From positions 8,556,001 to 8,620,000 of the forward strand of contig JBHGNT010000003.1 of assembly GCA_043228905.1 (NCBI GenBank): a stretch of 64,000 bases of DNA. The letters are read 5' to 3'. The notes under the pieces are model-generated. The model did no database searches and was not told the DNA's origin. It saw only the letters and a program-made list of their open reading frames with translations. Origin of the DNA: Azolla caroliniana (lineage: Eukaryota; Plantae; Polypodiophyta). Positions 4,530 through 47,700 of the stretch are shown piece after piece (position 1 is the stretch's first letter; each line of letters begins with the position of its first letter). Both the position numbers and the translations under genes were made by a program.

Positions 4530-5236
4530 TACTCCCCCTCTTTAAAACATTGCACTCTTGCAATGGAAAGTTAGGGAAGTTAGTTCTGAGAGTACTTTCG
4601 CGTTCCCATGTGGCATCTTTTATTGATTTATCCATCCATTTTATTTTAAATTCTTGGATTTCTTTAGTACGTAATTTTTTTGTTTTAACATCGAGAATTC
4701 TTTCTAGTACATGTGGTTTAGAAGATACATCTTCAGAAGTAACCAGAGTTTCAGTTGTGATTGTATTGTCGCTAGAACCTAGAAGTTCTTTTAAACGACT
4801 CACATGAAAGACTGGATGAATTCCAACACCATCGGGAAGAGCGAGACGATAGGCTGATGACCCAATACGTTTGAGGACTGTAAAAGGTCCACAAAACCGT
4901 GGGGCTAACTTAGCGCACTTACTTGTAGACAATGTCTTAGAATTGTGAGGTACACGTAAAAATACCTTATGTCCAGGGTTGAATACACAAGGTTGCCTAT
5001 GATGATTGACATAAAAACGCGCTCTATCTTGAGCTGTTTTTATATTATCTTGTGCAATATGCAACATATCTTGCATATCCTGAAGAAAGTTTTGTGTACT
5101 TCGCAACTCATCATGATGTATATTAACATCAATCGGGGCTCGTGGTTGAAAACCATACATCAACATAAAAGGACTATATCCCGTCGACGTATGCTTGGAG
5201 CTATTATAAGCAAACTCCAAAATTGGGAGATAACGT
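4516..5236 (-). pseudogene. Element A integrase C-terminus with GPY/F motif and chromodomain
   Basis: YLPILEFAYNS..TGYSPF, KLAPRFCGPF..IHPVFHVSRLK, then ERILDVKTKKLRTKEIQEFKIKWMDKSIKDATWE. The upstream part of ORF 4516..5718 is LTR B read-through. Confidence 0.9.
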
Positions 5237-5881
5237 TGTCGTGAAGAAAACTGTCCCCAGGCGCAAACCGTGTATAGCGTGTGTGAACCGGCCCTTACAG
5301 GTGGACACGCCCCTTGTTGTATAGTAGATAGGTAGGCACAAAAGTCGAATCCTAGGTAGCAATATTCTATAGAGAGAATTAATGTGATGTAAACGGGTGA
5401 AACGGCCTCCCTCCTTGAGCTATAAAAGAGAGGGAGACGGGGAGAGAATGTATTGTGCGCTAGAGGGGACGAAGTGCTGTCGGACTGGGACCGAGCTCTT
5501 CTTCTTTGTCGTTCTCCATAGTTTTCTTTTGCGCAGGTTCTCAGGAGGCTGATTCTGCTCCGTGGAACGCCCGTGTGCTTCCGACAGAATCTCCATCTTG
5601 CTCCCCTGTGTGCGTGGGTGATCAGGCGTCGGCATCCATCTCGCCGACCTGATCGGCTGTAACCGTTCGAGTCGTCTGCAAACATACATATTTTATTTAC
5701 ATACGCTAGTGTTCTCAACTCGTGTCTCCTGTGTTGTTGGGCCGCGTTCCCGTGCGCTTCTTTGTCTATACGTGTGTGAGCGTCTCTCTCTTTCCTCCCC
5801 TTTTCTCACCTATTCCTCGGTCCAAGACCCCAGTGGTCCCGCCTTGTTCTCCACGCACGCGCGTAATAACGCGACATCTTT

Positions 5882-5898
5882 TGGTGAACCCGATGTGA
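5882..5898 (+). promoter_or_regulatory. Primer binding site complementary to the tRNA-Trp 3' end
   Basis: TGGTGAACCCGATGTGA, one mismatch to the reverse complement of the plant tRNA-Trp end TCACGTCGGGTTCACCA (recalled sequence); perfect copies in C and F. Confidence 0.85.
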
Positions 5899-5920
5899 AT
5901 AGGCGGCAGAGGAGTAGAAG

Positions 5921-8037
5921 ATGAGGGGGTCGGACCTCGTAGAAGCCATGGCTTCGGCTGTGGACCATATAGTGAGTGCGCGCGAAGGCACCGACGCCCT
6001 TGATAGGGCTATCGAGGCGGTTGTCGGTACGATCGGCCGGTTTAGTGGGAAGGATGCCACGAGCTACTTGGCGTCCTACCGGGCTGAGATGGTAATGAGG
6101 GACATTCCGGAAGAGACCGGATTCCCTCGAGTGGCAATGCTGGGCATCCATACGGAGGTGCTCGAGGTACGGGCCGAGAGCCGGACCTGGGAGGAGTTCG
6201 AAGGTCGGCTCATCGAAAAATACGGGCTTGAAGATGCGCTTCGACTTTCGAAGCGGGACTTCATGGAGTGGGTGGAGACCCCCAACAAAGGAAGGAACGC
6301 GTCGGTGCTCCTCCGGGAGTTTGAGGAACGCTTCGCGCGCCTCTCGATGCTTGACCGAACCGTTTTGGACACAAGCCATGTCCTATTGTTTGTTAAGTCA
6401 GTTGACGAGCGGGATCGGGAGCAGGTAGGCCTCCTATTGGAGACTGATGACGGGCTGACGACCGATTGGGCTGTGGTGAAAAGGGTTTGTGGCCATTTTG
6501 ACAAACGGCGGGAATGGGTTGACAAAGGATCGACAGGGGCGGGCTCTGTCGCAGCAAGGAAGCTCGAGCCAACACCACCAACGTGAAGGGAAGAGACCCG
6601 AGATTAGCTCAAGACCGGATCGGCTTCGACCGGCATGGTCAAGGGCTCGTCCAGGGGAGCAACTCTGGAGGAACTAACGCAGATGGTAAAGGATCTCCAG
6701 ATCGCCCAAGCACGGAGGGACGGTAGCGAACAGGGCCGTGATCGATGACCTCTGGCTGGAAATAGGTGCATGTGGTGTGACGCGGTTGGCCACATCCGGA
6801 AGGACTGCGGGGACTTCGCCGAGGCGATGAGAAGCAACGTGGTGTACTTGTGGAACGGTCGGGTGCACGCCAACGAGACCCGAAGGGCCCTAGACCTAAA
6901 CGTCGGGCGAGGATGTATGAAAAGGCTGATGGAGGAGGCGACGACTCGTCACGCGGAGACCGTCCACTACTCGGCGTCAACTGGTATTCGGGTCGGAGGT
7001 GGCGAGGCCCCGAAGACGAACCAAGCCGGGTTCTGGCCGACGATGCTAGAAGGCCTCGCCGGCGCACGACTAAGGAAAGAAGAGGCGAACCGCGTGGAAA
7101 AACGGGTCCGGGAGGTAATCGGGTGGAGTGACCCGGTGGAAGAAAAGACGAGCTTCGTCGAAGCCGCTTGTCAAAACTACAAGGCTCTGGTGGAGGACAA
7201 GTGGGTAGGGAAAACTGGAGGGGCTGGGCCCTCGCAACGATATGAAACTCGATTCGGGCAAAGGCGGAATGAGGCCAGTGTAACCGGCGCCCAGGATAAT
7301 CCCAAGAGGGGCGGGTACCGGCTGGGCACAGAAATCGAAAGATCCACGGACCTGCGAAAGGTCCTGGAAGAACGAATCCTCGATAGCAAGGTGGAACTGT
7401 CGCTGAGGGAAGTGCTCGGGATCGCCACGAAGGAGTTCCACGACTCCATCGTAGACTTGGTGAAGAGGAAGAGGCTGTTGACGGAGACAGAACCGGAGAA
7501 GCCGGTGGAGGTGCGGATGATGCACATAGAGGACATGGCACGGGAAGAGAGTTGGCGGAGAGCCACTATTTGAGGCCGCACTGGGCCAGAGCGACCACGG
7601 AGACCCCCATGAAGATCGGAGATGTTCATGAACCGGTGGTGGCGTTGGTGGACCACGGTTCAGAAATCAATTTGATGTCCATGGACTTCTACAAGAAGGG
7701 GAAATGGCCGACCAACATGAAGCACGGGTGGAAAATACGGGCGGCGACGCGTGCCACCGAAGAACTGCATGGAGCCTGCCCGAATGTACGAGTAAAGATC
7801 GGCGATGTCGAGATTGACCAGCACTTCTTCGTGTAGGAGACGTCCTCACATTCGGTTATACTAGGAGAACCGTACATCACGACAGCACGGATGGAGACCA
7901 AGGTGCTGGATAATGGCTCGGCCTATGCAAGGGTCAAGAGCCAAGATGGGCGTCACTTGGTCCAGTTCCTGACGGTGAGACCGAACAATGAGCGGAACCG
8001 CGAGACCCTCGGGGGCGAAAGCCGAGAGGATTTTTAG
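5921..8037 (+). pseudogene. Element B ORF1: gag (capsid-like region, CX2CX4HX4C knuckle) plus aspartic protease
   Basis: ORFs 5921..6586, 6770..7573 (C-MW-CDAVGHIRKDC) and 7552..7836 (ALVDHGSEINLM); ends EDF* at 8035-8037. Confidence 0.85.
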
Positions 8038-11000
8038 AGAGGGCTATCAAGGTGTGGGGCCGCGATAGTATGGACACTCCGGGAAAACCCCACAAGTGTA
8101 TGATAGCGAAGAAGACCTGTACTATAAGTAGGAAATTTTGGTTCTCCGACAACGGAGGGTGTACGATAGTCGACGTCGTTGGCCGGAAGAAGAAAAGGGC
8201 GGAGGAGCGACTTCGGGCATGTGGTATCCTCGGCCCTGGAGAGGAAATCAACGGAGCCGTGGAGGCGGTCTCTTTCGACGATACCTTGGGGGAGCTGCGA
8301 GAGGTAGTCGGAGGAGTCCTTAAAGAGGACCGGACGATTCCGGTATGTTCGGAAAGGATGTACGAAGTCATCGCGGACTTCAGTAGAGGGCTCGAGTCGG
8401 ATCAGACGGCCCGGGTGGACATGAGGTACAAGATTGTGGACCGGAAGGTGAGGCCAGTCGCGGCTCCCTTGCCGGAGGGCAGCGAGTTGCGAATAAAGGG
8501 GGTTGCGTCGGACCCGAGTTTACAAAATCTGGCCCGCATAGGACACACGTTCACCGACATAACGCTACGTGAGCTCAAAATCGGTGGGGGCGGCTTCCTA
8601 CTGCTGGTGGAAGAGGACCGGTTTCGGGGAATGCTCGGAAGGCACGGGAAGGCTTTCGCATTCTCACCGGAGGAGATCGGGTGCGTAGACCCGACAGTCG
8701 TAGAACCGATGGTGATATTCACGGTACCGCATGTGCCGTGGAGTCTCAAACCGATTCCAGTACCCAGAGCTCACATCCCGAAGTTGATGGAGCTGTTAAA
8801 GCAGAAGGTTGAGATGGGCATCCTCGAACCGTCGAGTGCCCCATACTCGAATCGGTGGTTTACCGTGCCGAAGAAGGACGGCACGCTGCGCTTTATTCAA
8901 GACCTACAGCCGGTCAACAAGGTGACCATTCGAAACGTAGGAATCGGACCGACAATAGACGAGTTCACGGAGGCCTTCGCCGGAAGGTCGATTTACTCGG
9001 TCGGTGATCTCTACTCGGGGTACGATCAGTTCCAGCTAGCCGTAGAGAGCAGAGACATCACGACAATGCGAACTCCTCTCGGCCTAGTACGGATGTGTAC
9101 CCTACCGCAAGGAGGGACGAACTCGGTGGCTCACATGGTGAACGCAATGAACAAGGTGCTGAGGGATTGTATCCCGGACATCACCGAGCCGTTTTTGGAC
9201 GACGTCCCGATCAAGGGATGCCCGGTGGAGGAAAAGGACGAGACGATCGGACCGGACGGGTGCCGGAAATTCGTGGCGATGCACATCAATGACTGCGAGA
9301 AGGTGCTGCAGAGGTTAGAGGGCGCGAGGCTCACCTTCTCCGGGGGAAAATCGGCCTTCGGGCAATCAGAGATCATGGTCGTCGGACACCTATGCGGGTC
9401 GTACGGGCGGAAACCGTCTCCGGCTAAGGTAGAAGCCATCTCCGCGATGAAGCACGACTGTAGCTCGGTCACAGAGGTTCGGAGGTTCTTGGGAGCATGC
9501 GCGTTCTACCACATTTGGATCCCGCATTACGCCCACGTCGCGGAGCCGTTATACGGGTTGCTGAAAAAGGGGCGAAAATTCGAGTGGAGAGACGAGCATA
9601 CAGAGTCTGTCCGAAAGATGAAGGAAGCACTTGCTGCAGCTCCGGCGCTCCGAAAGGCTGTCTACGGAAAGGACACTCCAATTTACGTAACGGTAGACAC
9701 GAGTCCGACCGGGATCAGATGGGTCGTCAACCAAGAGGACGAGGACGACATGCGTTTCCCGACCCGGTTCGGCGCGAAGGTCCTCAACGAGCGACAACAA
9801 GGATATGCCCAGGTTAAACGCGAGCTCTGGGGTATCGTTTCAGCGGTAAAGGCCGATAAAGACTACCTGATCGGGACAGAGGTAATTATTGAGACAGACT
9901 GCCTGCCAATTCTTGGCATGGTTTCTGGATGCGCGACGTCGGACCTGGCAATGCTCAGGTGGATATAGTAGATCAAGTCCTTGAATCCGGAAATACGACA
10001 CATTTCCGGGAAAGGCAATGCCATGGCCGACATGCTTTCAAGGGCGAGGTTCGCAAATGAGGGCGGCATGGTTTCGGAGGACGAGGAAGTCGGCGTGGAC
10101 TTCTTCGAGGCGGCTTACGTAACAACCGGCAGGGAATGCACTCCAACACTTAACGATTTCGACGAGAGCAAGTACAACGGGGAGTGGCTGCAGATCGGTG
10201 GGTTCCTGAAAACAATGGCGCCGGACGTGGCATGGACAAAGGATGAGGCTAACCGGATTCGAAAGAAAGCGTACCGATTCTTTCTCTAGGACGGGTACAT
10301 ATGGAAGCACCAGAAGAAGAGGAACGACATCCCGCTCCGAGTGGTGGCGAAGAAGGAGGAACAGGAGGATTTGCTGGCGGCATACCATGATAGTCCTTGG
10401 GCTGGACACCGTGGAACGTGGGCCACGTTCGAAAAGCTAAAGGGGAAGTACTGGTGGCCGGGACTGTACCGGGACGTGCATCGGTTCGTGAAGACTTGCG
10501 AAAGCTGTCAGGTGCACTCCATGATCCGACATTGAGACGAGCTTCACCCGACCTACCCTCCGACCGTCCACTTCAAGTGGATGGTGGATTTGGTGACGAT
10601 GCCAATGGGGGTAGGATAGATGCGGTATCTGGTGCTGGCTCGGGAGGATCTAACGAACCAGGTTGAAGGCCGAGCCCTGCAGAACAAGACGACTGCAGCC
10701 GTGTTCCGGTTTTTTATTGAGGACGTGGTATGTCGATACGGGTGTGTAGGAAAGATTGTGGCTGACCGTGGTGAGTTGGAGGCAGAAGAGGCCAAAGAGC
10801 TGTTCGACCGGCTGGGAGTCAAACTTTCGCTCACCACAGCGTACAATCCGGAGGTGAACGGAAAGGTAGAGCGCGGACATGGGCCGATTGTCAAAGCGCT
10901 AGTACGGGCGTGCGGAGGCCAAGTCGGGAACTGGCCACGACTGCTACCTTATGCCTTGTGGGCGGACCGGACTACGCACAGTTCGGTAACCGGGTTCATG

Positions 11001-11522
11001 CCGGCAGAGCTTATGTTCGGACAGAAGCCGATCATGCCAACAGAGCGAACGATCTCCTCGTGGGCCACGGTGGACTGGAGGGATGAGATGAGCCGGGAGG
11101 AACTATTGGCGGCACGGATTCGACAGCTCGAGCGGAGGCCGGAGGTCGTAGAGCGAGCCGCAGAGAAACTTCGGGTAGCGAGGATAAGGAACAAAGCCCG
11201 GTTCGACCGAACACACCGGCTCCGGCCAAGGAAGATCGAGGAAGGCGATTGGGTGCTAGTCTACGACAACAACCTCGACAATAAGCACAGGGCCACGCGG
11301 AAGTTTGCGAGGAGGTGGTTTGGGCCTTACGTAGTAACAGGCGCCAACGACAATGGGACGTACCATCTCGCGGAGCTCGACGGTACGAGAATGGCGATAC
11401 CGGTAGGGGGGAAGAGGATCAAAGCGTTCAAGAAACGACACGACGGCGAGCCAGAGCTAGGAGGCATGGATAGCAACGACAAGCAGCCCGAGGTGGAGGA
11501 CGAACCGGTAAACGAGGAATAA
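8031..11522 (+). pseudogene. Element B ORF2: RT, RNase H and integrase in the -1 frame, with several point stops
   Basis: 8052..9968 (LPQGGTNS..FLDDVPIKG; VTVDTSPTG..KRELWG), 9981..10289, 10341..10535 (HHCC zinc finger), 10620..11522 (DDE core, RWFGPY). Confidence 0.92.
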
Positions 11523-12238
11523 AAGCAAGGACCGGTTTTCTCCAGTAGGAACCCAATTTTGGCGCATACCGGTGGATGCGCGGTTAGGTGGGGGCGGATG
11601 TCGTGAAGAAAACCGTCCCCAGGCGCAAACCGTGTATAGCGTGTGTGAACCGGCCCTTACAGGTGGACACGCCCCTTGTTGTATAGTAGATAGGTAGGCA
11701 CAAAAGTCGAATCCTAGGTAGCAATATTCTATAGAGAGAATTAATGTGATGTAAACGGGTGAAACGGCCTCCCTCCTTGAGCTATAAAAGAGAGGGAGAC
11801 GGGGAGAGAATGTATCGCGCGCTAGAGGGGACGAAGTGCTGTCGGACTGGGACCGAGCTCTTCTTCTCTGTCGTTCTCCATAGTTTTCTTTTGCGCAGGT
11901 TCTCAGGAGACTGATTCTGCTCCGTGGAACGCCAGTGTGCTTCCGGCAGAATCTCCATCTTGCTCCCCTGTGTGCGTGGGTGATCAGGCGTCAGCATCCA
12001 TCTCGCCGACCTGATCGGCTGTAACCGTTCGAGTCGTCTGCAAACATACATATTTTATTTACATATGCTAGTGTTCTCAACTCGTGTCTCCTGTGTTGTT
12101 GGGCCGCGTTCCCGTGCGCTTCTTTGTCTATACGTGTGTGAGCGTCTCTCTCTTTCCTCCCCTTTTCTCACCTATTCCTCGGTCCAAGACCCCAGTGGTC
12201 CCGCCTTGTTTTCCACGCACGCGCGTAATAACGCGACA

Positions 12239-15200
12239 ACGTTCCCATTTTGTTGGTTTTGCACTAACGTATGCTCGAAGCATGTCCTCAATAATTTGAT
12301 TTACTCGCTCTGTCTGTCCATCGGATTGAGGATGATCCGTGGAGCTCATGCTCAACGTAGTTTCTAACTTCTTAAAGACTTGCGTCCAAAAGGCACTAGT
12401 AAATTTTGGATGTCGATCACTCACGATATCCATCGGTAACCCATAAAAACGAAATAACTCGTCAACGAATTGGTAAGCCAATTCAGGAGCTCTTACCGTG
12501 GTTTTAGTGGCAATAAATCTGGCCATTTTAGTTAATCGACCAACCACAACCCAGATGGCATCATGGCCTTTTTGGGTGCGTGGAAGGCTAACAATAAAAT
12601 CCATGGATATACTTTCCCACTTATTATTGGGAATGTCCAAGGGATGTAAAAGTCATGCGGCTTTAAGTTGCTCGGCTTTGTTAACCTGACATTGGTGACA
12701 TTTAGTCACATAACTATGTATGTTAGGGCGCATCTTAGGCCAATAGAATTGAGTGGAGATTAGAACGAGTGTACGATGTATTCCAGGGTGCCATGATGAG
12801 GGTGCATCATGGCATTAAAAAAGAATCCTCTTTTTGACCTCGGGTAAATCTGGAACACAAACCTTCCCATTACGGTAGAGCAGACCGTGAGCAATGTGGA
12901 AGTATTCCTTCGAGGATGTGGTGGTGTCTGTTCCAGACTCAACTCTTGCCCAGTATTTTGCGAAATAACTATCATTAGGATACTTCCCTCGAAGGTGATT
13001 ATAAAGATCTGATGATATTTCAATGAAGCTAAGCATGTTAACTTCACGGATGCGACTTAGTGCATCAGCGACAGTGTTCATGGAACCTCTACGATATCGT
13101 ATGGAAAAATCAAAGTCCTGGATGAGATCACCCCATCGTGCCTTACGACCTTTCAGGTCTTGTTGGTCACAAAAATATTTCAAGGACTCGTGGTCCATAG
13201 TTACCACAAAGCGATTTCCATAAAGATAATGGCGCCATGTTTTAAGCGCATGTATAACTGCAAATAATTCCTTTTCTTGAACGGTATACCGACATTGAGC
13301 AGAATCAAGTTTCTTACTCTTGAATGCTATTGGTTTACCATCTTGATATAAGACAACACCTATAGCATAATCACTTGCATCGGTTTCAACCTCAAAAGGT
13401 TTTGAAGGGTCGGGTAAAAGAAGTGAAGGAGCCTTGCAAACCGGGTCCTTGAGTTCCTTAAAGGCGAGGTCTAGTGTAGCATTCCACACAATAGGTTTTG
13501 TAGACTTACGCGTTTGACCTTTTAGAAGACCAGTAAACGACGTCGTCAATTGGGAGTAATTACGAAGGGATTTTCGCAAGAACCTGACAAAACCAAGGAA
13601 TGATCGAACTTCTCGAATGTTCCGAAGAGTGGGCCAAAGCTTGATTTTCTCGATGCGAGAAGGATCAATTTCAACTCCTCGTTCGGTTATGAGATGTCCA
13701 AGATAAGTAATTAATTTCTTGAAGAACTCACATTTTGAGATCTTCCCGTAAAACTGTTTGTCATGCAATGTTTGTAAAACAAAGTGGACATGTTTAGCAT
13801 GTTCTTGTAATGTACGACTATAAACTAAAATATCATCCAAGAAAATAACGACAAATTTTCCAAGTTGTTCTCGGAAAATGTCATTCATTTCTTGTTGAAA
13901 TGTAGCCAGAGCATTGTTCAAACCAAAAGGCATAACCAAAAACTCATAATAGCCATAACGCGTACGAAATGTTGTTTTAGGAACATCGTCCTCAATTATA
14001 CGAATTTGATGGTAGCTAGTACGGAGATCAAGTTTCGTAAAATACTGAGCTCCCTAGAGACGGTCAATTAGATCGTCAGCCCGGGGCAGTGGATACGAAT
14101 TCTTGATCGTCACTTTATTCAAGTGTCGGTAATTAATACACATACGCCATGTGCCCTCTTTCTTTTTAACCAAGAGAACTGGTGCACCCCATGGAGATTT
14201 ACTATAACGTATATAACCCATTCGTAAATAGTCCTTGAGTTGCTTAGATACCTAATCCTCTTCGAATCGACTTAAGTGATAAGGAGGTATACTTATTGGT
14301 GCAACACCTGGTACAATATCTATACGATGGTCTATATTACGTTTAGGAGGTAAACCATCTGGTAGTTCACTCGGAAAAACATCACGAAAATCATTTAAGA
14401 TTTCATCAAGTTGTTGTTCAAAATATGTTAATTGAACTGAGACATTATCGACATTGTAAATGTGAATGTCCGGATCAAGTACACAATAGAATAGAGTAGA
14501 ACAAGACAACTTGGATATTGATGGACACGAGGAAACAATCGAGAGGGATTGTTTTTTGACACATTGAATAAAATGAGTACAGTCGTTTAGTACAAATGTA
14601 ATTGAATGATGAACCCAATCAATAAATAAAGAAGAGTTTTTATTATAAAACCAGGGATAACCCAATATTACATCGGTGGTACAAATATTCATTACATTGA
14701 ACTCTACTTCCTCTATATAAGTATCAATAGAAATTCCTAATGAATGAATCACCCCGTTGATGTATTGTACTCTTCCATTAGCCAAGTGCACCGTGTAGGT
14801 GTGATAACTTACGGTGGGTTGGATTCCCCATATCTGAACCAAATGATCATTGACAAAGTTGTGTGAGCTTCCTGAATCAAATAAAATTTGTACGGGAGAT
14901 CCATTGATATACCCGTTTGCACACAGTAAATCATTGGGACCCAATACATAGTGAGGGAAAAAACATTGACAATTACTTAAATGATGTGTATAGACCTGAA
15001 GGACATTAGGAATCTGACCTTTATGGTCTGCAGCTTTAGCTTTGTTGTCGTGCTCTTTTCGTTGGAGCTTTCAACATTGTTCTTTTGTATGACCCTTCTT
15101 TTTGCAGAATACGCAAAAAAGGATGTTGTCGCTTACAATTGCAATCCATGAATTCGTTGGGTGTCTTGCGTTTCCCAACGAATTGCGACTGCTTAGTCCC

Positions 15201-18915: not shown

Positions 18916-19013
18916 TGTTGAGCGGCAAGCTCAATCGGATCCAGATCGGTTGAATAAGCCTGAGCCGGATCGGTGAGCCGGTGAGCAAGTGAGCCGATGA
19001 GTTGGGGAGCCGG

Positions 19014-22000
19014 TGTCGTGCCTTTCAGCTCCGGATCGTTGCGTGAGTCGGGTGGGAACCGCCGAGGTTTTGGACTAGGAGGAGGAAGAATTTGAGGCTA
19101 ATCTAGTTATGAATATGAATAGATTATAAGAAAGAGATATAGAAACTTGTGAATCCCACAAGTATAATTGTTTTAGTTTATCTAAATCGTAGTAATAAAT
19201 TGAAATAATTTAGAATAGATTAGAGTAGATTGAGAAAAGAGATCAAACCTTGTGAATCCCACAAGTATTACATTAATCAATATTTATGTAAGAATATGAA
19301 TTTAGATTGAAAGAGATAGATTATCTTAAACTTCGTGAATCCCACGAGTATATTTTATTGATTGTTGGTGTTTTAGGAAATATATCCAATTTCCCAAATA
19401 TTTTTCACACCTATTACATTGTGCTCCCCATCCTTATGTAGTGATGGGAGAGACTAAGCATAGCTACATGCTTTTTTTCTAATATGTTCATGCACACTAA
19501 ATGTGCATGTGATGCTTTTCTAATCCTTGCTTTTATTTGCTAAATATAGTGCTCATGCACGCTAGATGTGCATGAGTCACTTTTTAGTTGCTTGCGTTTT
19601 TCTATAAAATATTCACGCACTCTAAAAATGCACGATTTACCTTTTAATAAAGGTAGGTGCAAATAAAGCACTTATAGTTATTAAATCTATTTGTAGAACA
19701 CTAAAGATAAGGTAGCATAATGGTAAAGTTTAGGTTTGGCTACGTGGAGGTACAGGGTTCTAATCTTGCCCTATGCACGTGATAAATATCTTGATATATT
19801 ATTTTATTTATTTATATGTAATTAAATCGGTTATATTATTTTTTACTTTTTCACGTAGTGTACGAAATACACTACGACACTCGCCCCCTCCGAACCCGCA
19901 CATCCTCCGGTATGTGCCGAAGTTGCCGATGCTCGTTGTCTCCCCTTCATCCTCCGTTTGTCCCGCTATGTCAACTTTGTCTCTCCATTTTGAGTAGACC
20001 CATTCTTCCCACCCGAACCATTGTCGCCATCCGATCCACCATATTCTTTGTTCTCTCTCGTCATATTCTTGGCCCTTGTCATTCGTGGTAGTGTCTTTTA
20101 CTGGCCTCTTTCTTGTCTTCATCAACCTTGACTTTTTTCCGGATCGCTCTCGTCCGATCGACTTTCGGTTTGATCGGCTTCCGATCGGATTCGTATTCGG
20201 CCGAATCGGAATCGGTTGTTCGGTTTCGATTGAGTTGGTCTCCTTCCGGCCCGGTTTCGATCTATCGGTTTTGGTTTCGGTTGGCTTTCTTTTCCTCGTT
20301 TTCACCAGTCTCGACCGGTCCAACCTCCGGTTGAGTCGGATTAGCTTCTTTCCGGATCGGTCTCGTCCGATTGGCTTTCGGCTAGGTCGGCTTCCATCCA
20401 TATTCGCGTTCGGCCAAGTCAGACTCGGTCGATCGGTTTTGATCGAGTCGACCCCTTTTCGGGTCGGCTTTCTTTCGGGTCGTCCTACGGCTGAATCCTC
20501 ATTCGCCCGGTTCGGCTTTCGTTTGTGTCGTCTTTCGGCCGAATTCTCTTCCTTTCGGTTCGGCTTTCTTTCGGGTCGACTTTCGGTCGAATCCTCTTTT
20601 ACCCGGTTCGGCTTTCTTTCGGATCGGAATCCCGTCCGGATCACCTTCCATCCTAACTGGCTTCTGACTTTACCTTTCTTGCCGCCACCTCCCATCTCTC
20701 CGGTCTCACGTTGCTTCTCAGACACAACCGCCGAAGTCTCTAGGATTAGTGGGTAGGAATCCTCGGTATTATCATCCTCTGTCATTTCAACCATAGCCTC
20801 CTTCTCGGCTATCTCTCCGTCGTATGAATCGGCTTCGACCTTTGTTTTCTCTCCACCACCTTCCGTCTCTTCGGTCTCACGTTGCCTTTCGAACGCAACC
20901 GCCGGAGTCTCTAGATATTGTTGGCATGAATCCTCGGTATTACCTTCTTTCGTAGTTTCACCCTTAGCATTCTTCTCGGCTATCTCTTCATCGTATTCGT
21001 CGGCTTCGACATTCGTTTTCTCTCCGCCACCTTCCGTCTCTTCGGTCTCACGTTGCCTTTCGATCGCAACCGCCGGAGTCTCTGGAATTAGTGGTGGGGA
21101 AGTCTCGATATGGCAATCTGCCATTGATTCGTCCATAGCCACCTCCGATTCGATTTCGTCTTTTGTGGCTACCTCCTTAATCACATCCGCTTCACACTCT
21201 TTATCTGCATCAATTATGCAAACATCTATTATGCTTACCCCTTTTTGACCCGATGTCTCGAGCACTTGTATCCCGAAATTTCCTTCTACACTTGAATTAT
21301 CGGCCTTATCCTTCGCCATCGTTCTTTCACAAGACGAGTGGGTGTCTTGTTCCACTCTTTCTCCCGTGGTACCATCATGTTGTATTTCGGCCTTCATATT
21401 GGCTTCATCGTTTTTCCTCAATCGACCATCCTTCATGGGCCATGTCGTTGTTGACGAGATTCTCAGCTTCCTTTCATCATGTCTTCGGCATACCCTTTCG
21501 ACTTTAGCCCAATCCTCGGTAAGGCCGTTCGCACCGTCATCATCTTCGAGTTCGATCCCAATGTCCATCCTTTCTTTCCGATCGATCGATCTTACGAACA
21601 TTAAGACTTTATCTCCTCCCACCAATCTTCGTTCCCGCTCCGAGAGTCGAGCAAAACGATGCTCGAACTCTAGGAACGCTTGCGTTGCACTTCGGTGAGT
21701 CTTCTCCGACGCCACCCATTCGTCGAATTCTCGTCGATCTCGTCCCGTCCATCTCTCATAGTCATATGCCTCCCGTAAAGCTTCTTCAAAGGACTCCCAT
21801 GTCGAGTTTTGTTGTTGTATCTTGTGGATTCTCTCTTGTAGTTCGTCCGAGGCCACCCGACTAAAGGATATCACTTGCAATCCTTCCGGTATCCGATATT
21901 GCATCATCTCCGCCTTATATTCACGTAGGTAGCGTGACACACCCTTACCGTTGAATTCCCCGTTTCGTCGCAGAAGCCGCTCTACTGCCGCCTTCATCTC

Positions 22001-22985
22001 CGACATCGCTCGTTGTTCTTGTAGCATCCGCTCGAACATCATCATCATCGTTATGCTCATTGCCTCTTGTTGATTCTCCATCTCCTTGCCACCCGCCTTC
22101 ACGTCGGGTTCACCAACTGTGTCGTGCCTTTCGGCTCCGGATCGTTGCGTGAGTCGGGTGGGAACCGCCGAGGTTTTGGACTAGGAGGAGGAAGAATTTG
22201 AGGCTAATCTAGTTATGAATATGAATAGATTATAAGAAAGAGATATAGAAACTTGTGAATCCCACAAGTATAATTGTTTTAGTTTATCTAAATCGTAGTA
22301 ATAAATTGAAATAATTTAGAATAGATTAGAGTAGATTGAGAAAAGAGATCAAACCTTGTGAATCCCACAAGTATTACATTAATCAATATTTATGTAAGAA
22401 TATGAATTTAGATTGAAAGAGATAGATTATCTTAAACTTCGTGAATCCCACGAGTATATTTTATTGATTGTTGGTGTTTTAGGAAATATATCCAATTTCC
22501 CAAATATTTTTCACACCTATTACATTGTGCTCCCCATCCTTATGTAGTGATGGGAGAGACTAAGCATAGCTACATGCTTTTTTTCTAATATGTTCATGCA
22601 CACTAAATGTGCATGTGATGCTTTTCTAATCCTTGCTTTTATTTGCTAAATATAGTGCTCATGCACGCTAGATGTGCATGAGTCACTTTTTAGTTGCTTG
22701 CGTTTTTCTATAAAATATTCACGCACTCTAAAAATGCACGATTTACCTTTTAATAAAGGTAGGTGCAAATAAAGCACTTATAGTTATTAAATCTATTTGT
22801 AGAACACTAAAGATAAGGTAGCATAATGGTAAAGTTTAGGTTTGGCTACGTGGAGGTACAGGGTTCTAATCTTGCCCTATGCACGTGATAAATATCTTGA
22901 TATATTATTTTATTTATTTATATGTAATTAAATCGGTTATATTATTTTTTACTTTTTCACGTAGTGTACGAAATACACTACGACA
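19014..22985 (-). mobile_element. Element C: very young pol-less tRNA-Trp-primed LTR element (3972 bp) with one long ORF
   Basis: 866-bp LTRs at 19014-19879 and 22120-22985, only one substitution seen; TSD CCGG (19010-19013 / 22986-22989); perfect Trp PBS 22099-22115; PPT next to 19880. Confidence 0.95.
19808..22081 (-). CDS. Intact ~757-aa Gag-derived protein: capsid-like N-terminus, acidic PET repeats, basic repeats, Trp-rich C-terminus
   Basis: ORF 19808..22102, first ATG at 22081; N-terminus aligns with B gag (FNGKGVSRYL..VLMFVRSID..GLTEDWAKVERVC vs FSGKDATSYL..LLFVKSVD..GLTTDWAVVKRVC); no PR, RT or INT motifs. Confidence 0.8.
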   Translation of the reverse strand: MENQQEAMSITMMMMFERMLQEQRAMSEMKAAVERLLRRNGEFNGKGVSRYLREYKAEMMQYRIPEGLQVISFSRVASDELQERIHKIQQQNSTWESFEEALREAYDYERWTGRDRREFDEWVASEKTHRSATQAFLEFEHRFARLSERERRLVGGDKVLMFVRSIDRKERMDIGIELEDDDGANGLTEDWAKVERVCRRHDERKLRISSTTTWPMKDGRLRKNDEANMKAEIQHDGTTGERVEQDTHSSCERTMAKDKADNSSVEGNFGIQVLETSGQKGVSIIDVCIIDADKECEADVIKEVATKDEIESEVAMDESMADCHIETSPPLIPETPAVAIERQRETEETEGGGEKTNVEADEYDEEIAEKNAKGETTKEGNTEDSCQQYLETPAVAFERQRETEETEGGGEKTKVEADSYDGEIAEKEAMVEMTEDDNTEDSYPLILETSAVVSEKQRETGEMGGGGKKGKVRSQLGWKVIRTGFRSERKPNRVKEDSTESRPERKPNRKEENSAERRHKRKPNRANEDSAVGRPERKPTRKGVDSIKTDRPSLTWPNANMDGSRPSRKPIGRDRSGKKLIRLNRRLDRSRLVKTRKRKPTETKTDRSKPGRKETNSIETEQPIPIRPNTNPIGSRSNRKSIGRERSGKKSRLMKTRKRPVKDTTTNDKGQEYDEREQRIWWIGWRQWFGWEEWVYSKWRDKVDIAGQTEDEGETTSIGNFGTYRRMCGFGGGECRSVFRTLREKVKNNITDLITYK

Positions 22986-23235
22986 CCGGTTAGGTGGATC
23001 CAGTAGTAACCGGAAGCCTAGTAGCAGCCTAGAGTACTAGGTAGTTAATGTATTGTAGTTAGTGTCAGATGCTCGTGTGAGCATTGAAGTACATTGTACT
23101 TCTGTCAGTCCTCTTAGGACTTGTATAAATAATGTTGTTGAGCATGTAGTATGTACAAAGAATTTTATAGAGAACTATTATTGTTTTGATAATAGATTTA
23201 AGTTGTTCTGCTCTTTCTCTATCTCTCCTGCGTAT

Positions 23236-32700: not shown

Positions 32701-35550
32701 ACACAATACCCCAAAGTTTCCACTTGACTTCGGCGTATATTTGTTGTTGTTCGTTGAGAACCTTTGCTCCGAACCGGATGACATACCTCACATTATCTTC
32801 TCCTTCTTGGTTGATGACCCATATGTTTCCGGTTGGGCTCGTATCTACAGTCACATAAATCGGCTTCCCTTCACTATAGTTGGCCTTTCTTAGTGTTGGA
32901 GCTTCAAGAAGTAGTTTCTTCAATCTTTGCATCGCGTTTGTATGCTTGTCTCGCCATTCGAACTTCATTCTTTTCTTTAACAATCCATATAATGGCTCGA
33001 CAACATGAGCGTAGTGCGGAATCTAGATATGATAAAACACGCATGCTCCAAGGAACCTTCGAACCTCCATTTGGGTTACGCATTCTTCTTTCATGTCCTG
33101 GATCGCGTTCACCTTGGATGGCGAAGGCTTCCGGCCGTATGCTCCACACAAGTGACCTACCACCAAGATCTCTGGTTGCCCGAATGTGGATTTTTCTTCT
33201 GAAAATGTCAAATTTGCATCTTCGAGCCTTTGGAGCACTTTCTCGCAATCTTTCATATGATCCACAACGAACGTTCTACACCCTTCCTTATCTTTCGATT
33301 CATCCTTCTCTTCATCCGAACATCCTTTTATCCGAATATCATCCAAGAATGGCATCGTGATGCCCGAGATGCAATCCTTGAAGACCTTGTTCATAGCATT
33401 CACTATATGAGCCACTGAGTTCGTTGCACCTTGAGGTAAGGTACACATCCGCACAAGCCCGATCAAAGTCCTCATGGTTGTAATGTCACGACTGTCGATC
33501 ACCAATTGGAATTGATCGTATCCAAAGTAGAGATCGCCAATGGAGTAGATGGACCGGCCCGCAAATGCTTCGGCAAATTCATCCACAGTCGGACCGATTC
33601 CAACATTCTGAATTGTCACCTTGTTGACGTGTTGAAGATCTTGGATGAATTGCAATGATCCACTCTTCTTCGGCACCGTGAACCACCTATTTGAATAAGG
33701 AGCATTCGATGGTTCCAAAATCCCCGTTTTCACCTTCTCCTTTAAGAGCTCGATTAGCTTCGGTAGGTGTGCTCTCGGAACCGGTATTGGCTTGAGGTTC
33801 CAAGGTACATGAGGCACCGTAAATATCACCATCGGCTCTATAATCTTTGGGTTGGCACATCCGATCTATTGAGGGAAAAATGTGAAAGCCTTCCCAGGTC
33901 TTTCAAGCATTCTGCGGAACATTCACTCCTCTTCAGGGAGGAGGAAATCCTCCCTTCCAACTTGTAGGTTTCCTTTCGTCTCTTCGGTGAAGACATGAGC
34001 TACTGCCTTTGGATCCCTTAAGCTTGGATCATTAGCGACTTCCTTCATCTTTTGCCATCTATCTTCCGGTAGCGGAACCGCAACTAGCTTGATCTTCCTA
34101 TCCACCGTTTTATATTTTGTGTTGACTTGAGCTTCCTCCATCAAGATGCGTCGATGGTATTCATTGATGATAGCGTACATGTTGACGGAGTTAACTGAAA
34201 TCACGTGTTGATCGTGAAGATAGCTCAAGTTCACGACTTCCTTGATTTCGCCGATGGTTTCCTTAAATGAGGCTTGTTCCATAATATGAGTCACGAATTC
34301 TTCTTCTTCTATTATGTTCTCTTCTTTCAACATCTTCTTGAAGTCTTGTATCCGACACTTGTCCTTCTTGTTGAGTAGTACTAGTTTACATGCGCCACTA
34401 GGTGTGACACATGTTACTTCTCCTTGTAATCCACACGCTCTACTTTCTTGTGGGGACTTGTGATTGCTCAGACTATTTGTGCCCCATTCTTCAATAGTCC
34501 GCTCTAAAAATCTGAGGATTTGCCTCGAAGGCTATCTCGATTTCTTTCATGATTAGCTCGCACCGTTAGGAATTGAACAAATCTTTGACTATCAAGACTC
34601 TTGATTCACATGAAGCCTGCTCCATTGTCGAACACCTTAGTCTCCATCCAGGATGATGTGATATACGGTTGTCCTAAGATGACAGGATGCGAAGCCGATT
34701 CTTGCACGAAGAAGTGTTGATCCATCTCCACATCCCCAATCGTGACTTTAACATTGGGACAAGCTCCGTACAAGTCCTTTGTGGTCTTTGTTGCCGCTCG
34801 AATCTTCCATCCATGGTTTGTGTTAATTGGTCATCTCCCGTTTTGTAGAACTCGGTCGCCATGAGGTTGATCTCTGAGCCATGGTCGATCAAGGCTACCA
34901 TGGTCTCTTTCTTCTCCCCGATCTTCACCGGCGTCTCTGTTGTCGCTTGTGCCCAATGAGGTCGAGTATAGTGGCTTTCCATCATATCTTCATCGACTTC
35001 GTCCCTTGCCATCATTATGGCATTTGTTTTTACTTTTAATGGTTTCTCTTCTTCCTCGTCCGACTGTTGCCTTTTTCTCTTCACAAGGTCCATGATCATA
35101 TCATGGAACTCCTTCTTCATAATTCCAAGCAATTCCCTCAAGGACAAGGTCACGTGGCTATCAAGAACACATTCCTTGAGAATCTTCTTTAGATCTGTCG
35201 TCTGCTCTATTTTCGACCTTAGCTTATAGGTAGGCATAGTTCTTGTCTTCCAAGCGGGGTCTTCGACACCAACCTTCATGGGCCGTACCGTTTCTTCGAC
35301 TCGTTTGCTCGACTCCCCTTTCCGGTTTGAGTCTCCTTCCTCCGTTTGTAAATCTTGACTCGTTTCTGCATCGTCTTTCTTTTTCGCGCTCCTTGTTTCA
35401 TGTCTTTTCGATGGGTTGTCTTGCCCTTCCATTCTTTTTCTCTTTTCATCCACGAACACCTCGTGGTTGTCACACATCACTTCCGCGAGTATGGTGTTGT
35501 CATCCACTAGATCCGACCATCCGGTTATACTTTGCACATTTCGGTCCGCA
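29796..35550 (-). mobile_element. Element E: 5'-truncated Trp-family Ty3/Gypsy (same family as K)
   Basis: 3' LTR 29796-30959 (TGTCG...CGACA); PPT GGTGGGGGTGGA; degenerate ORFs 34674..35642, 33923..34333, 33023..33832, 32084..32983, 31670..32077 and 31019..31375 homologous to B. Confidence 0.9.
30231..30300 (+). other. tRNA-like A-box/B-box module inside LTR E (also in C, the C-family solo LTR, K and G)
   Basis: TAGCTTAGTGGTAA ... GGTTCAAAT with tRNA-like spacing. Confidence 0.6.
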
Positions 35551-42642: not shown

Positions 42643-42680
<38 letters not shown>

Positions 42681-42867
42681 GCACAAAAGACTCTTTCTAT
42701 TCCATAGAAAACAATAATACAACCACCCTTACAAAGAGGTTACAAGGTCACTATATATAGTGACCGACTTAGGGCAACTACCATTTATGCTAATTACACA
42801 AATGGCCCAAACTTGATCTATACAAAGGGATAGTGTGAATACGTCCATTATACACTTGTATTCGACA
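37328..42867 (-). mobile_element. Element I: intact, very recent Ty1/Copia (Tnt1/Tork-like)
   Basis: LTRs 37328-37633 and 42556-42867, apparently identical except for (GA)n length; TSD CTTCC; iMet PBS 42542-42553; PPT next to 37634. Confidence 0.97.
37827..41861 (-). CDS. Intact Copia Gag-Pol polyprotein, 1344 aa
   Basis: [112 protein letters not shown]. Confidence 0.97.
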   Translation of the reverse strand: MMASTSGSSEMSLRKFDGSNFNFWKEQMQDYLIVKGQIDPIENEEPPEGYKPIEWQKLDRIVRATIRMHLSESVYFTVQSCTTAFELWKTLSDTYEKKVPATKMFLIRRLYNLRMKESDSVQAHLNEYESISSQISSQGTAIEDELRAMILMSSLPSSWETFVTTVCNASTTAVKYSEVTSAILTEAARRKSFAKDSTDDAYVVQGSTDRSNIRGRDSSRQPNNQRRRSQSRDNRICNYCKKPGHIKADCRALKNKNDKSQKSDKKSGRHEEINYVSFSANVLPNDPNILSIENPVGSEVLLTTEESSTWLLDSGASFHVTPHRSQFRQYTIRHSDSVRVGNSQHCDIIGIGTVELNLAGGSTLVLHNVRHVPELSRPLISVGQLDEDGIRAGFSSGGWTLHRGNLLLARGPKIHSLYPLHVTLREGNLFLVDIPVSSLWHRRLGHLSKAGITHLSRAGYIPKLSFSDHQFCEHCQYGKQAAASHPTSAPRETRPLDLVHSDVCGPMPHQSLGGASYFVSFIDDSTRKVWAYPIRTKDRVFLIFSDWLAMVENQTDRKLKCFRTDNGGEFKSEEFVKFCRQRGIRREFTAPHSPEQNGIAERMNRTIQERIVSMLQHSGLSDGFWAEALLTAVHIINMSPSRPLGLQIPQELWIGSKPNYDKLRIFGCEAYALIPKDDRRKLAPRSRKCIFLGYGSDGEMGYPLWDPERRQIVRSSDVVFNKSAMNPSVEKLIEVRRVTFSDVPTLQEGPALNTRSASRVAEPYTTDSNNSDSAQQNNSLSDHPTSIPDATSPIIPRRSERLSQPPERYSPGIFFTDAGEPTSYEEASTSVDSATWHLAMESEMHSIRANKTWDLVELPKNRRALPCKWVYRLKETSDSTTPKYKARLVAKGFRQEYGVDFDEIFSPVVKMTTLRFLLGVVAADNLELIQLDVKTAFLHGDLEEEIYMEQPKGFVATGQEHLVCRLRKSLYGLKQAPRQWYKKFDDFIQSIGFSKSDEDHCLFTNTAQDGSPIFLIIYVDDMLISGRHAGELTDLIRQLRLKFAMKDLGPARHILGMKISRHRDKRHLFLSQTDYIGRVLERFNMQSAKSASTPLPMNLRLSQRDCPTSGPEGEDMKSVPYAPAVGSLMYLMVATRPDISHVVGVVSRFMHNPGRSHWNAVKHVFKYLAGTKDHGILFGPNSTSGVVGYTDSDFAGCIDSRKSTTGYCFKFGNGAISWKSKLQECTTTSTTEAEYVAASDAAKEALWLGRLAHTFRQVDHDSAPVVYSDSQGVVALSRNPVHHNASKHIDVRYHFVRDCVISGKIGLEKISTTDNVADGMTKCLSADRFRSLRHQMGVTTNQSG

Positions 42868-44789: not shown

Positions 44790-47700
44790 GCCCATAAATA
44801 CAAATCATGGGTGGAAGATCCGTGCTGCTATGAAAGCTACCGAAGACTTGTATGGGGCATGTCCTAACATCCCCATCACGATTGGTGATCTCAAGATAGA
44901 TCAACATTTTTTTGTTCAAGACTCGACATCCCATCCCATCATTCTTGGGCAACCATACATAACATCATCACGGATGGAAACCAAAGTGTTCAACAGTGGT
45001 GCAACATTTGCTCGAGTAGGGAGTCTTGATGGGAAGAAGGCCGTACAATTCTTGATTGTACGTGCCAACCATGAAAGGAATTGGGATTGTCTCAGAGAAG
45101 ATGTTTCGGATTTTTAGAGTGGACTATTGAAGCATGGGGCACAAATAGTCTGAGCAATCACAAGTCCCCACAAGAAAGTAGAGCGCTTGGATTGCAAGGA
45201 GAAGCAACATGTGTCACACCTAGTGGCGCATGTAAACTAGTACTACCCAACAAAAAGGTCAAGCGTCAGATACAAGACCTTGAGAAGATGCTGAAAGAAG
45301 AAAACATAATAGAAGAAGAAGAATTCGTGACTCATATTATGGAAGAAGCCTCATTTAACGACACCATCGGCGAAATCGAGGAAGTTGTGGACTTGAGTTA
45401 TCTTCACAATCAACATGTGATTTCGGTTAACTTCGTCAACATGTACGCTATCATCGATGAATACCATCGACACATCTTGATGGAGGAAGCTGAAGTCAAC
45501 ACAAAATATAAAACGGTGGATAGAAAGATCAAGCCAGTTACAGTTCCGCTACCAAAACATAGCTAGCAAAAGATGAAGGAAGTCACTAATGATCCAAGCT
45601 TAAGGGATCCAAAGGCAATAGGTCATGTCTTCATCGAATGCTCCTTATTCAAATAGGTGGTTCACGGTGTTGAAGAAGAATGGATCATTGCAATTCATCC
45701 AAGATCTTCAGCCCGTCAACAAGGTGACAATTCGGAATGCTGGAATCGGTCCGAGTTTGGATGAATTTGCCGAAGCGTTTGCGGGTCGGTCTATCTCCTC
45801 CATTGGCGATCTCTACTCTCGATACAATCAATTCTAGTTGGCGGTCGACAGTCTTGACATTACAACTATGAGGACTCCGATTGGGCTTGTGCGGATGTGT
45901 ACCTTACCTCAAGGTGCAACGATCTCGGTGGCTCATATAGTGAATGCCATGAACAAGGTCTTGAAGGATTGTATCGCGGGCATCACGATGCCATTCTTGG
46001 ATGATATTCCGATAAAAGGGTATTTGGATGAGAAGAAGGATGAATCGAAAGATAAGGAGGAGTGTAGAAAGTTCGTTGTGGATCATATGAAAGATTGCGA
46101 AAAGGTGCTCCAAAGGCTCGAAGATGCAAATTTGACATTTTCAGGAGAAAAATCCGCATTTAGGCAACCAGAGATGTTGGTGGTAGGTCACTTATGTGGA
46201 GCATACAACCGGAAGCCTTTGCCATCCAAGGTGAACGCGATCCAGGACATGAAAGAAGAATGCGTAAACCAAACGGAGGTTCGAAGATTCCTCGGAGCAT
46301 GCACGTTTTATCATATCTGGAATCCGCACTACGCTCATGTCGCCAAGCCATTATATGGATTGCTAAAGAAAAGAATGAAGTTCGAATAGCGAGACGAGCA
46401 TACAAACGCAATGCGAAGATTGAAGAAACTACTTCTTGGAGCTCCAGCACTAAGGAAGGCCGACTATACCGAAGGAAAGCCAATTTATGTGACTATAGAT
46501 ACGAGCCCAACCGGAATCGGGTGGGTCATTAACCAAGAAGGAGAAGATAATGTGCGGTATGCCATCCGGTTTGGAGCAAAGGTTCTCAGCGAACGACAAC
46601 AAAGATACGTCCAAGTCAAGTGAGAACTTTGGGGTATTGTGTTTGCAGTGAAGGTGGACAAAGACTACCTAATCGGGTTAGAAGTGATAATTGAGATAGA
46701 TTGTCTCCCAATCCTCAGGATGATCTCAGGATGTGCGACACCAGAGCTAGCAATGCTAAGGTGGATCACCTATATCAAGTCTTTAAACCCAGAGATCCCC
46801 CACATTGCAGGGAAGAAGAACGCCATGGCTGACATGTTGTCGAGGGCAAGATTTGAGAACGAAATTGACATGGTTTCGGAAGCACGCTAACATTCCATGC
46901 CTTCAACGAGGACGAGTACGAAGGAGAGTGGTTACTGATCGGCAGATCCTTAAGAACAATAACGGTGGATGCTTCGTTGTCGAAGGAGGAGGCTCTACGA
47001 ATTCGGAAGAAAGCTTACCAATACTTCCTAATGGGAGGATTCCTCTGGCGACACCCAGAAAGAAGGACAGGAATGCCATGTCGAGTGGTGGTGAAGAAAG
47101 AAGAGCACGTGACGCTGATGACTGAATTCCACGAGAGTCCTTGGGCAGGTCATAGAGGAACATTGGCGACGTTCGAAAAGTTGAAGGAGAAGTACTGGTG
47201 GCCAAGTATGTACAAAGATGTACTCCATTTCGTGTCCACATGTGAAACTTGCCAAGTACATTTGAACATATGTCATCGTGATGAGTTGCAGCCAACATAC
47301 CCGCTCACCATACACTTCAAATGGATGGTGGATCTGGTCTCAATGCCAATGGGAGTGGGACAAATGAAATACTTAGTTCTGGCAAGAGAAGACTTAACAA
47401 ATCAAGTGGAAGGACGGGCCTTGACAAATAAGACGACGTCAGCTGTTTGCAAATTTCTACTCGAAGAGGTGGTTTGCCGAAACGGATGTGTGGGAAAGAT
47501 AGTCGCCTACCGAGGGGAGTTGGATGCACGCGAAGCAACCGAGCTCTTCGAACGACTAGGCGTGAAGCTCTCCCTCACGACTACCTACAATACAGAAGCG
47601 AATGGGAAGATCGAGCGAGGGCATGGACCAATTGTCAAAGCCATCGTACGAGCATGCAACGGTCGAGTTGGGAACTGGCCCTATGCCTTGTGGGCCGACA

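Follow-up and report, generated by a model that had tools for sequence, protein, structure and literature searches.

A predicted -1 frameshift signal after the protease in Phygy-type Ty3/gypsy retrotransposons of Azolla caroliniana, and a related clade with pol in the -2 frame

Introduction

Element B is a long terminal repeat (LTR) retrotransposon located in a stretch of 64,000 nucleotides (nt) of the fern Azolla caroliniana (contig JBHGNT010000003.1, positions 8,556,001 to 8,620,000, forward strand), hereafter called the window. Its first open reading frame (ORF1) encodes Gag and a protease (PR), while reverse transcriptase (RT), RNase H and integrase are encoded by a pol region in another frame, which raises the question of how pol is expressed. 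We suggest, with a probability that we put at about 0.87, that the lineage as a whole uses a -1 programmed ribosomal frameshift positioned after the protease. An earlier note, made from the letters of the window alone, had pointed to such a signal in B and in two further copies, K and E.

The signal in the window copies and its position after the protease

In B the ORF1 frame finishes GAG GAT TTT TAG (8026-8037), the ending G GAT TTT TAG at 8028-8037 being present as the note described it. Also as described, K has the same heptamer together with the hairpin, and E carries the signal on the minus strand with A instead of G as first base of the heptamer. All three copies are decayed. The parts of the signal are the following.

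8028..8034, plus strand: slippery heptamer G_GAU_UUU (GGATTTT) in the ORF1 frame of B.
8035..8040, plus strand: ORF1 stop TAG (8035-8037) and the 6-nt spacer of B, counted from the heptamer; families differ in the stop, which may be TAG, TAA or TGA.
8041..8071, plus strand: predicted pseudoknot stem 1 of B, a 31-nt hairpin with covariation (arms 8041-8048 and 8064-8071, apical loop 8053-8059).
8088..8094, plus strand: predicted 3' arm of stem 2 of B, CCCCAC, complementary to the loop GTGGGG.
45108..45171, plus strand: signal in K (heptamer GGATTTT at 45108-45114 followed by TAG, hairpin at 45121-45151, stem 2 arm at 45166-45171).
34450..34513, minus strand: signal in E (AGATTTT at 34513-34507, hairpin at 34500-34470, stem 2 arm at 34455-34450).

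The heptamer, the downstream ORF in the -1 frame, the 6-nt spacer and the covarying 3' stem-loop agree with the canonical definition of a -1 signal, which includes a spacer of 5-8 nt (PMC3458567). GGAUUUU is, as the note said, a known -1 slippery site of dianthoviruses and umbraviruses, where G_GAU_UUU is an accepted G_GA exception to the rule X_XXY_YYZ (PMC5009743). Some details had to be corrected. The pairing of stem 1 exists in B, but it starts 6 nt past the heptamer and not 8, with eight outer pairs in the family; the earlier count of six pairs at 8 nt arose because the window copy departs from its siblings at 8070-8071. For stem 2 the pairing between the loop and CCCCAC stands, but the seventh pair that had been proposed needs a base present in 3 of 29 B copies, the family helix having 6 base pairs (bp). 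Moreover, the pol of B, which was taken to be open in the -1 frame through to the integrase, is open at 7992-9968, where RT and RNase H lie; its integrase region contains premature stops (9966-9971, 10290 and later) and is open in young relatives.

The break had been placed between PR and RT, and modelling of the protein bears this out. Pfam matches of the C-terminal domain of ORF1 to aspartyl proteases were weak and under the cut-off. The predicted model of this domain from a sibling copy (pLDDT 72) matches Ddi1 RVP and retroviral proteases with an E value of 5e-6, and as the modelled domain has a retropepsin fold the frame break sits after the protease. The motif D-H-G occurs in 26 of 26 aligned homologues, with a conserved His in place of the usual hydroxyl residue of the retropepsin motif D-T/S-G (PMC12789967).

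Conservation of the two-frame layout

A single continuous ORF in young intact copies would have spoken against a frameshift. What these relatives have is a Gag-PR ORF of 710 or 739 amino acids (aa) and then a pol of 1154-1155 aa in the other frame. Across 144 loci with both domains, in which B and K of the window were entered twice, none had a reading frame open through ORF1 and pol; the pol frame was -1 in 122, +1 in 18 (13 of them belonging to a clade with GUU in the heptamer, treated below) and the same frame in four. The metagenome scan, for which the best 80 of 172 loci were used, gave a similar picture: an in-frame heptamer was found in 73 of the 79 loci with the ORF1 stop inside the contig, and the 60 loci with pol had it at -1 in 56 (open from the heptamer in 55), at +1 in three, and in-frame but closed in one.

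For the B family the best 30 of 40 listed matches, with the window copy among them, were compared, and 29 share this TAG as their stop. The 30 loci of the K family are more decayed than those of B, and GGATTTT is kept in 20. From 17 full-length stretches of the GAU type, which were picked for a long ORF1 and are biased to young copies, 16 have pol at -1, seven retain both ORFs undamaged, and LTR identity is 99% or more in 11.

At the protein level, 46 of 81 anchored short PR homologues have a C-terminal DF. The 85 ORF-called long homologues end in DF (51), in DF or GF plus five residues (19), in VF plus one residue (two) or otherwise (seven), six being unanchored, and none of the 85 runs on into RT. 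In Physcomitrium the PR homologues stop at DF plus five residues. The homologues P0324, P0340, P0343, P0328, P0330 and P0348, known from protein only, end in NF or GF instead of DF, which would suit A_AAU_UUU and G_GGU_UUU. The Physcomitrium gene models P0270-P0278, P0283, P0297 and P0333 seem to span the frameshift with introns of differing ends and are probably annotation artefacts. The loci L189 and L190 (also L140 and L141) have a Gag-PR ORF of 758 aa, after which neither heptamer nor pol follows but a polypurine tract and LTR; these are non-autonomous derivatives with Gag-PR only.

Conservation of the slippery heptamer

Divergent families were compared through 26 of 43 clusters (88% clustering, imperfect), chosen by hand so as to exclude decayed copies, loci that lacked pol and those nearly duplicating B or K. 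Positions 1, 2, 4, 5 and 6 of the heptamer are invariant in the 26 families, the preceding nine bases being free, and the first G falls on the wobble base of many amino acids. The Asp codon of the heptamer is GAT in 23 of 23 cases, compared with a GAT:GAC ratio of 547:380 elsewhere in ORF1. The variants of the heptamer that do occur, G_GGU_UUU and G_GAU_UUC, are likewise slippery forms.

The stop codon itself is free to vary (TAG in 11 families, TAA in 11 and TGA in four), and it follows the heptamer immediately in 21 families, after 3 nt in two and after 15 nt in three. In L080 and L125 the pol frame opens merely 3 nt before the heptamer, by which the site is pinned. The first pol-frame AUG past the stop is 11-326 nt away in the 24 families with pol at -1. 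Finally, the pattern of heptamer, 6-nt spacer, stem and GGG has 2,405 genomic occurrences and the reversed pattern has none, so that the signal exceeds chance.

The predicted pseudoknot

In 24 of 26 families 6 nt separate the heptamer from stem 1, and the 31-nt hairpin aligns across all 26 without gaps. For the outer eight pairs of stem 1, 202 of 208 cells are paired (97%) at the 31-nt register, compared with 24-50% at other registers. When all 12 pairs are considered, double changes occur in 41 cells against 17.5 in shuffled alignments (reached in 0 of 500 shuffles), ten pairs carry at least one double change (6 of 500), and slid registers are 28-50% paired. A compensatory change from U-A to C-G was found at columns 5/27 in six families; it alters the first codon position of pol, and is therefore more than wobble drift.

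With regard to stem 2, in 26 of 26 families the loop is complementary over 4-8 bp to a strand located 11-16 nt downstream. The mean pairing score is 16.2 with the own partner and 13.7 with the strands of other families (0 of 20,000 permutations), control stretches giving 8.8 and 10.3, and loop and partner co-vary in several families. Covariation thus holds for stem 1 and is weaker for stem 2. No Rfam match was obtained for 7900-8250 at E<=1, and minimum free energy folding was set aside as evidence for the pseudoknot, since longer stretches frequently adopted other folds.

Proposed mechanism and alternative explanations

According to the mechanism that we propose, the predicted pseudoknot, 6 nt downstream, would stall the ribosome on G_GAU_UUU, and a minority of the paused ribosomes, with the Asp and Phe tRNAs in place, would shift one base back into the frame of RT, RNase H and integrase. 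The majority would terminate at the next codon, so that Gag-PR would be abundant and Gag-PR-Pol scarce, following the logic of Rous sarcoma virus (RSV) and avian sarcoma/leukosis viruses (ASLV). What the sequences show is the two-frame layout, the conserved heptamer, the variable stop, the covarying hairpin and the complementarity of the loop to the strand downstream; the folding into a pseudoknot, the slippage and the ratio of products are inferred.

Several points weigh against this reading. The 26 representatives were drawn from loci bearing the heptamer, which overstates its conservation, the unselected figure being the 73/79 of the metagenome scan. The shuffle control for stem 1 ignores relatedness, and its register came from the same sequences; moreover, the inner four pairs form in only 11-21 of 26 families. 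Stem 2 is rich in G, only 7 of 26 families have the own partner as the best or joint best, and shuffled sequences are beaten (p<0.05) in only 13 of 26. In addition, of 35 eukaryotic gene models, from Physcomitrium, Riccia and Adiantum, 20 extend beyond the end of ORF1, at inconsistent points, and several of them connect to sequence in the pol frame, apparently via predicted introns.

These gene models lead to the question of whether ORF1 and pol could instead be united by splicing in a subset of transcripts, as in Ogre, where an intron occupies this GAG-PROT/RT boundary (PMC6317226). The T-run and TAG would then serve as acceptor (the window site reads TTTTTAG), or CAG|GT as donor in the GUU clade, whose site creates AG|GT and has in-phase AGs downstream, and Physcomitrium models are indeed joined past ...DFGE. 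We regard this as improbable because the AG is removed in 15 of 26 families, which have TAA or TGA as stop, and because the linker is coding: unlike an intron, it lacks stops in the pol frame, and purifying selection acts on it (dN/dS about 0.2). The acceptors of the gene models vary, like ab initio guesses, and the in-phase AGs common to three GUU sequences lie in purine-rich surroundings. In place of an Ogre-type non-coding spacer with conserved splice sites, the sequences have overlapping ORFs, a variable AG and a coding linker, and splicing leaves the covarying hairpin at a fixed distance unaccounted for.

Even less credence can be given to a separate synthesis of Pol, by termination-reinitiation or internal initiation, with the structure serving initiation, packaging or RNA stability. 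There is an ATG at 8070 in the window copy, and in GUU copies ATGs of the pol frame occur 17-77 nt upstream of the stop; but AUG positions vary between families, and the absence of a conserved AUG disfavours reinitiation, which would also leave the invariant slippery heptamer unexplained, as well as the pol frame that, in 55 of the 60 metagenome loci, is open as far back as the heptamer. The ATG at 8070 was rejected as a start of pol, being private to the window copy. Lastly, the decay of the window copies and the error-prone nature of homopolymer runs might suggest a decay mutation or an assembly error propagated through the family. This explanation is refuted: the layout recurs at 2,405 sites of the genome, independent metagenome assemblies show it too, as do proteins of moss, liverwort and fern, and the youngest copies also have the frame break.

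A clade with pol in the -2 frame

In families with the heptamer G_GUU_UUU pol lies in the +1 frame, which is equal to -2, as seen in the metagenome loci L108 and L112 and in 11 genomic loci. The site reads AG_GUU_UUU and is followed, after a spacer of 5 nt, by the same predicted pseudoknot, with a strong hairpin (z -4.5). With the hairpin 5 nt from the heptamer, its distance from the UUU codon of the pol frame is the same as in the -1 relatives. Forty relatives were examined as 10-kb stretches, and all 19 of the GUU type had pol at +1/-2; in 11 of the 19 a pol of 1150 aa or more is open from the heptamer, the LTRs of 12 reach 99.5% identity or more (100% in seven), and nine combine the two. 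In an unselected set, the first ten pattern matches listed, eight were at +1/-2 and two were decayed.

L108 and L112 form one clade in the PR and RT trees (100/99 and 100/100, the RT tree holding 20 of the 26 rows), placed among -1 families, and the layout is therefore of single origin. Between two GUU families the dN/dS of pol is 0.076 at a dS of 1.26, and that of the linker is 0.21; the 130 codons of the linker contain no stops in the -2 frame compared with 10-24 in the others. Pattern counts in the genome were 2,405 for GAU with a 6-nt spacer, 97 for GUU with 5 nt (94 belonging to the GUU clade by listing), ten for GAU with 5 nt and nine for GUU with 6 nt. Only the first two combinations are amplified, the others being scattered single copies of several families. 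Three single copies of -1 families, at C9:8666206, C11:2615610 and C12:13518524 (G000), carry the GUU plus 5-nt pattern, and the one-base route to this layout recurs. L210, with A_GAU_UUU and a 5-nt spacer, was considered as an intermediate and rejected, as it belongs to a GUU family, is decayed and has lost 2 nt.

We lean towards the view that the GUU clade, recently mobile, represents a natural -2 frameshift driven by an RNA pseudoknot alone, on a run of five U. The clade would have arisen from a -1 ancestor by a net loss of one base, creating the five-U run, reducing the 6-nt spacer to 5 nt and bringing pol into the -2 frame. Lin et al. (PMC3458567) found that the best spacer for -2 shifting is 1-2 nt shorter than that for -1. 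Some facts tell against the proposal: replacing the first base of U6A by G eliminated the -2 product (Lin et al., PMC3458567), GUU on AGG would re-pair poorly in the P site, the porcine virus PRRSV requires protein stimulators (PMC4937337), the clade has one origin only, and a +1 shift or a CAG|GT splice donor would give the same frame.

It is this last point that the competing explanation takes up, in which either a +1 shift leads to pol or the clade, being non-autonomous, uses the Pol of -1 families. In the GUU family L112 the sequence UUU_U permits +1 re-pairing, but in the main GUU family a G follows UUU and such re-pairing would be poor, and a 3' structure at 5 nt suits a backward slip (PMC3458567). 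Thousands of -1 elements are potential donors of Pol in trans, and elements with Gag-PR only do exist (L189, L190). Nevertheless the GUU clade keeps an intact pol, with strong purifying selection over a dS of 1.26, which is unexpected for a passenger, and GAU copies in which a deletion leaves a 5-nt spacer, whose pol is likewise at +1, number only ten and are scattered. We therefore find the competing explanation doubtful, and keep a structure-driven -2 shift as the favoured one.

Structure and lineage of element B

Element B measures 7.0 kb, and its LTRs of 640 bp are 98.4% identical to each other. Its ORF1 is disrupted by indels and stops (710-739 aa when intact, in relatives). The features are as follows.

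5237..5876, plus strand: 5' LTR (TG...CA), 98.4% identity with 11599-12238; ACGT target-site duplication upstream at 5233-5236.
5882..5900, plus strand: primer-binding site; 18 of its 19 bases, with the added CCA counted, match the complement of the 3' end of the host's tRNA-Trp(CCA).
5918..8037, plus strand: ORF1 region, Gag (DUF4100, zinc knuckle) and protease, ending ...EDF-TAG.
7579..7990, plus strand: retropepsin-type protease domain, D-H-G replacing D-T/S-G, from the fold match of the modelled sibling copy.
7992..11522, plus strand: pol in the -1 frame with linker, RT, RNase H and integrase; 1154-1155 aa and intact in relatives.
11599..12238, plus strand: 3' LTR, preceded by a polypurine tract and followed by ACGT at 12239-12242.

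ACGT flanks both ends, a 4-bp target duplication of the form NCGN, and NCGN was also read by eye at the flanks of most of the 40 relatives. The 3' end of tRNA-Trp has 63 matches genome-wide, with tandem arrays at C8:17.80-17.82 Mb, C16:4.99-5.11 Mb and C5:10.11 Mb; for the primer-site motif as such the genome-wide count is 5,800. In the intact 1154-aa pol of a relative Pfam found RT, one RNase H, H2C2 and rve only, with neither a chromodomain nor an extra RNase H.

With its NCGN duplication, tRNA-Trp site and domain order, B is a Ty3/gypsy LTR retrotransposon that bears the hallmarks of Phygy. For Phygy, REXdb gives NCGN target-site duplications, a tRNA-Trp primer and an ORF organisation marked 'ND' (supplement 5, PMC6317226). 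The elements described here share with it the duplication, the primer site and the order GAG-PROT-RT-RH-INT without extra RNase H or chromodomain; they are 7.0-7.9 kb long as opposed to 7.7-10.0 kb in REXdb (PMC6317226), and relatives of them were found in liverwort and fern too. Named homologues came from Physcomitrium, Riccia, Calypogeia and Adiantum, pointing to a seed-free plant as host; those of PR in Physcomitrium patens are close (63-70% identity), which supports the Phygy placement indirectly.

Comparison with known systems

In RSV/ASLV, as here, the protease lies within Gag (PMC12789967), and a -1 shift near the end of gag is stimulated by a pseudoknot (PMC5009743). These are retroviruses with another heptamer, and the two-stem structure predicted here is smaller, so the likeness is convergent and not homologous. 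The heptamer of RSV is A_AAU_UUA.

The heptamer G_GAU_UUU is identical in dianthoviruses and umbraviruses, which also use plant ribosomes and have a nearby stop; their stimulator is a bulged stem-loop with long-range pairing, whereas a local H-type pseudoknot with a long first stem is predicted here (PMC5009743). Among plant elements, Ogre and Retand (Tat) have the polyprotein split at the same GAG-PROT/RT boundary, in the REXdb table by a spacer or stop in Ogre and by a stop in Retand. The Ogre spacer contains an intron and the Retand stop is a single in-frame one; both have an extra RNase H, and neither is listed with overlapping frames (PMC6317226). The overlapping frames that REXdb does list concern GAG/PROT (Tcn1, Selgy, SIRE), its table having no lineage in which GAG-PROT overlaps RT (PMC6317226). 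Tcn1, Selgy and Tf1/sushi are Ty3/gypsy elements with overlapping ORFs, and -1 shifts have been reported for Tf1/sushi members (PMC10085805); the break in these is between GAG and PROT, while here it is past the protease.

The GUU clade shares the octamer AG_GUU_UUU with the -2/-1 site of PRRSV nsp2TF (RG_GUU_UUU; PMC7618472), and of three sequences checked two have a -1-frame stop directly behind it, as at PRRSV-type sites. In PRRSV there is no RNA structure, and nsp1-beta and PCBP are required (PMC4937337), whereas the covarying RNA structure is the candidate stimulator in the GUU clade; the PRRSV-type motif CCCANCUCC was absent from the sequences examined, with the hairpin there instead. 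The GUU site is thus PRRSV-like in working but outside that class. With regard to the synthetic -2 constructs of Lin et al., the GUU-clade spacer, 1 nt shorter than in the -1 relatives, matches the -2 optimum; those constructs carry an engineered U6A, while the GUU clade is a natural sequence (PMC3458567).

A 2016 review gives two types only of plant elements with separate frames, both +1, and as natural -2 cases phage Mu, the arteriviruses (protein-stimulated) and Trichomonas virus 1 (PMC5009743). A word search of a paper on P. patens elements (PMC7466625) returned no mention of frames or ORFs. In the literature covered, which leaves out most subscription journals so that an earlier mention is possible, we found no plant LTR lineage for which a lineage-wide frameshift after the protease is described, and no account of the present signal or of a retrotransposon that shifts by -2.

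Other elements in the window

Two further elements were noted. A very young one at 19013-22986, with CCGG flanks and LTRs 99.9% identical over 868 bp, contains a 790-aa Gag-like ORF on the minus strand and a 171-nt tandem repeat, with no pol or Pfam match; Gag-like ORFs resembling it lie at 61362-62945 and 52449-53594. A Ty1/copia element at 37328-42873 has a single intact ORF of 1367 aa (37827-41930, minus strand) and LTRs about 98% identical, and a related LTR is found at 62916-63235.

Significance

The layout described here would fill in the ORF organisation of Phygy, marked 'ND' in REXdb, and would provide a plant LTR lineage with a complete, covarying -1 frameshift signal. The split into Gag-PR and Pol, similar to that of RSV, would be a third solution at this boundary, next to the intron of Ogre and the stop of Retand. 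Annotation pipelines probably score intact Phygy copies as dead or assign false introns to them.

The GUU clade matters more than the -1 signal. If the proposal is true, the -1 and -2 sisters with a shared stimulator would constitute a natural matched pair for the mRNA-tension model, and a natural structure-stimulated -2 site beside thousands of -1 sister copies would make the hypothesis linking spacer and tension directly testable.

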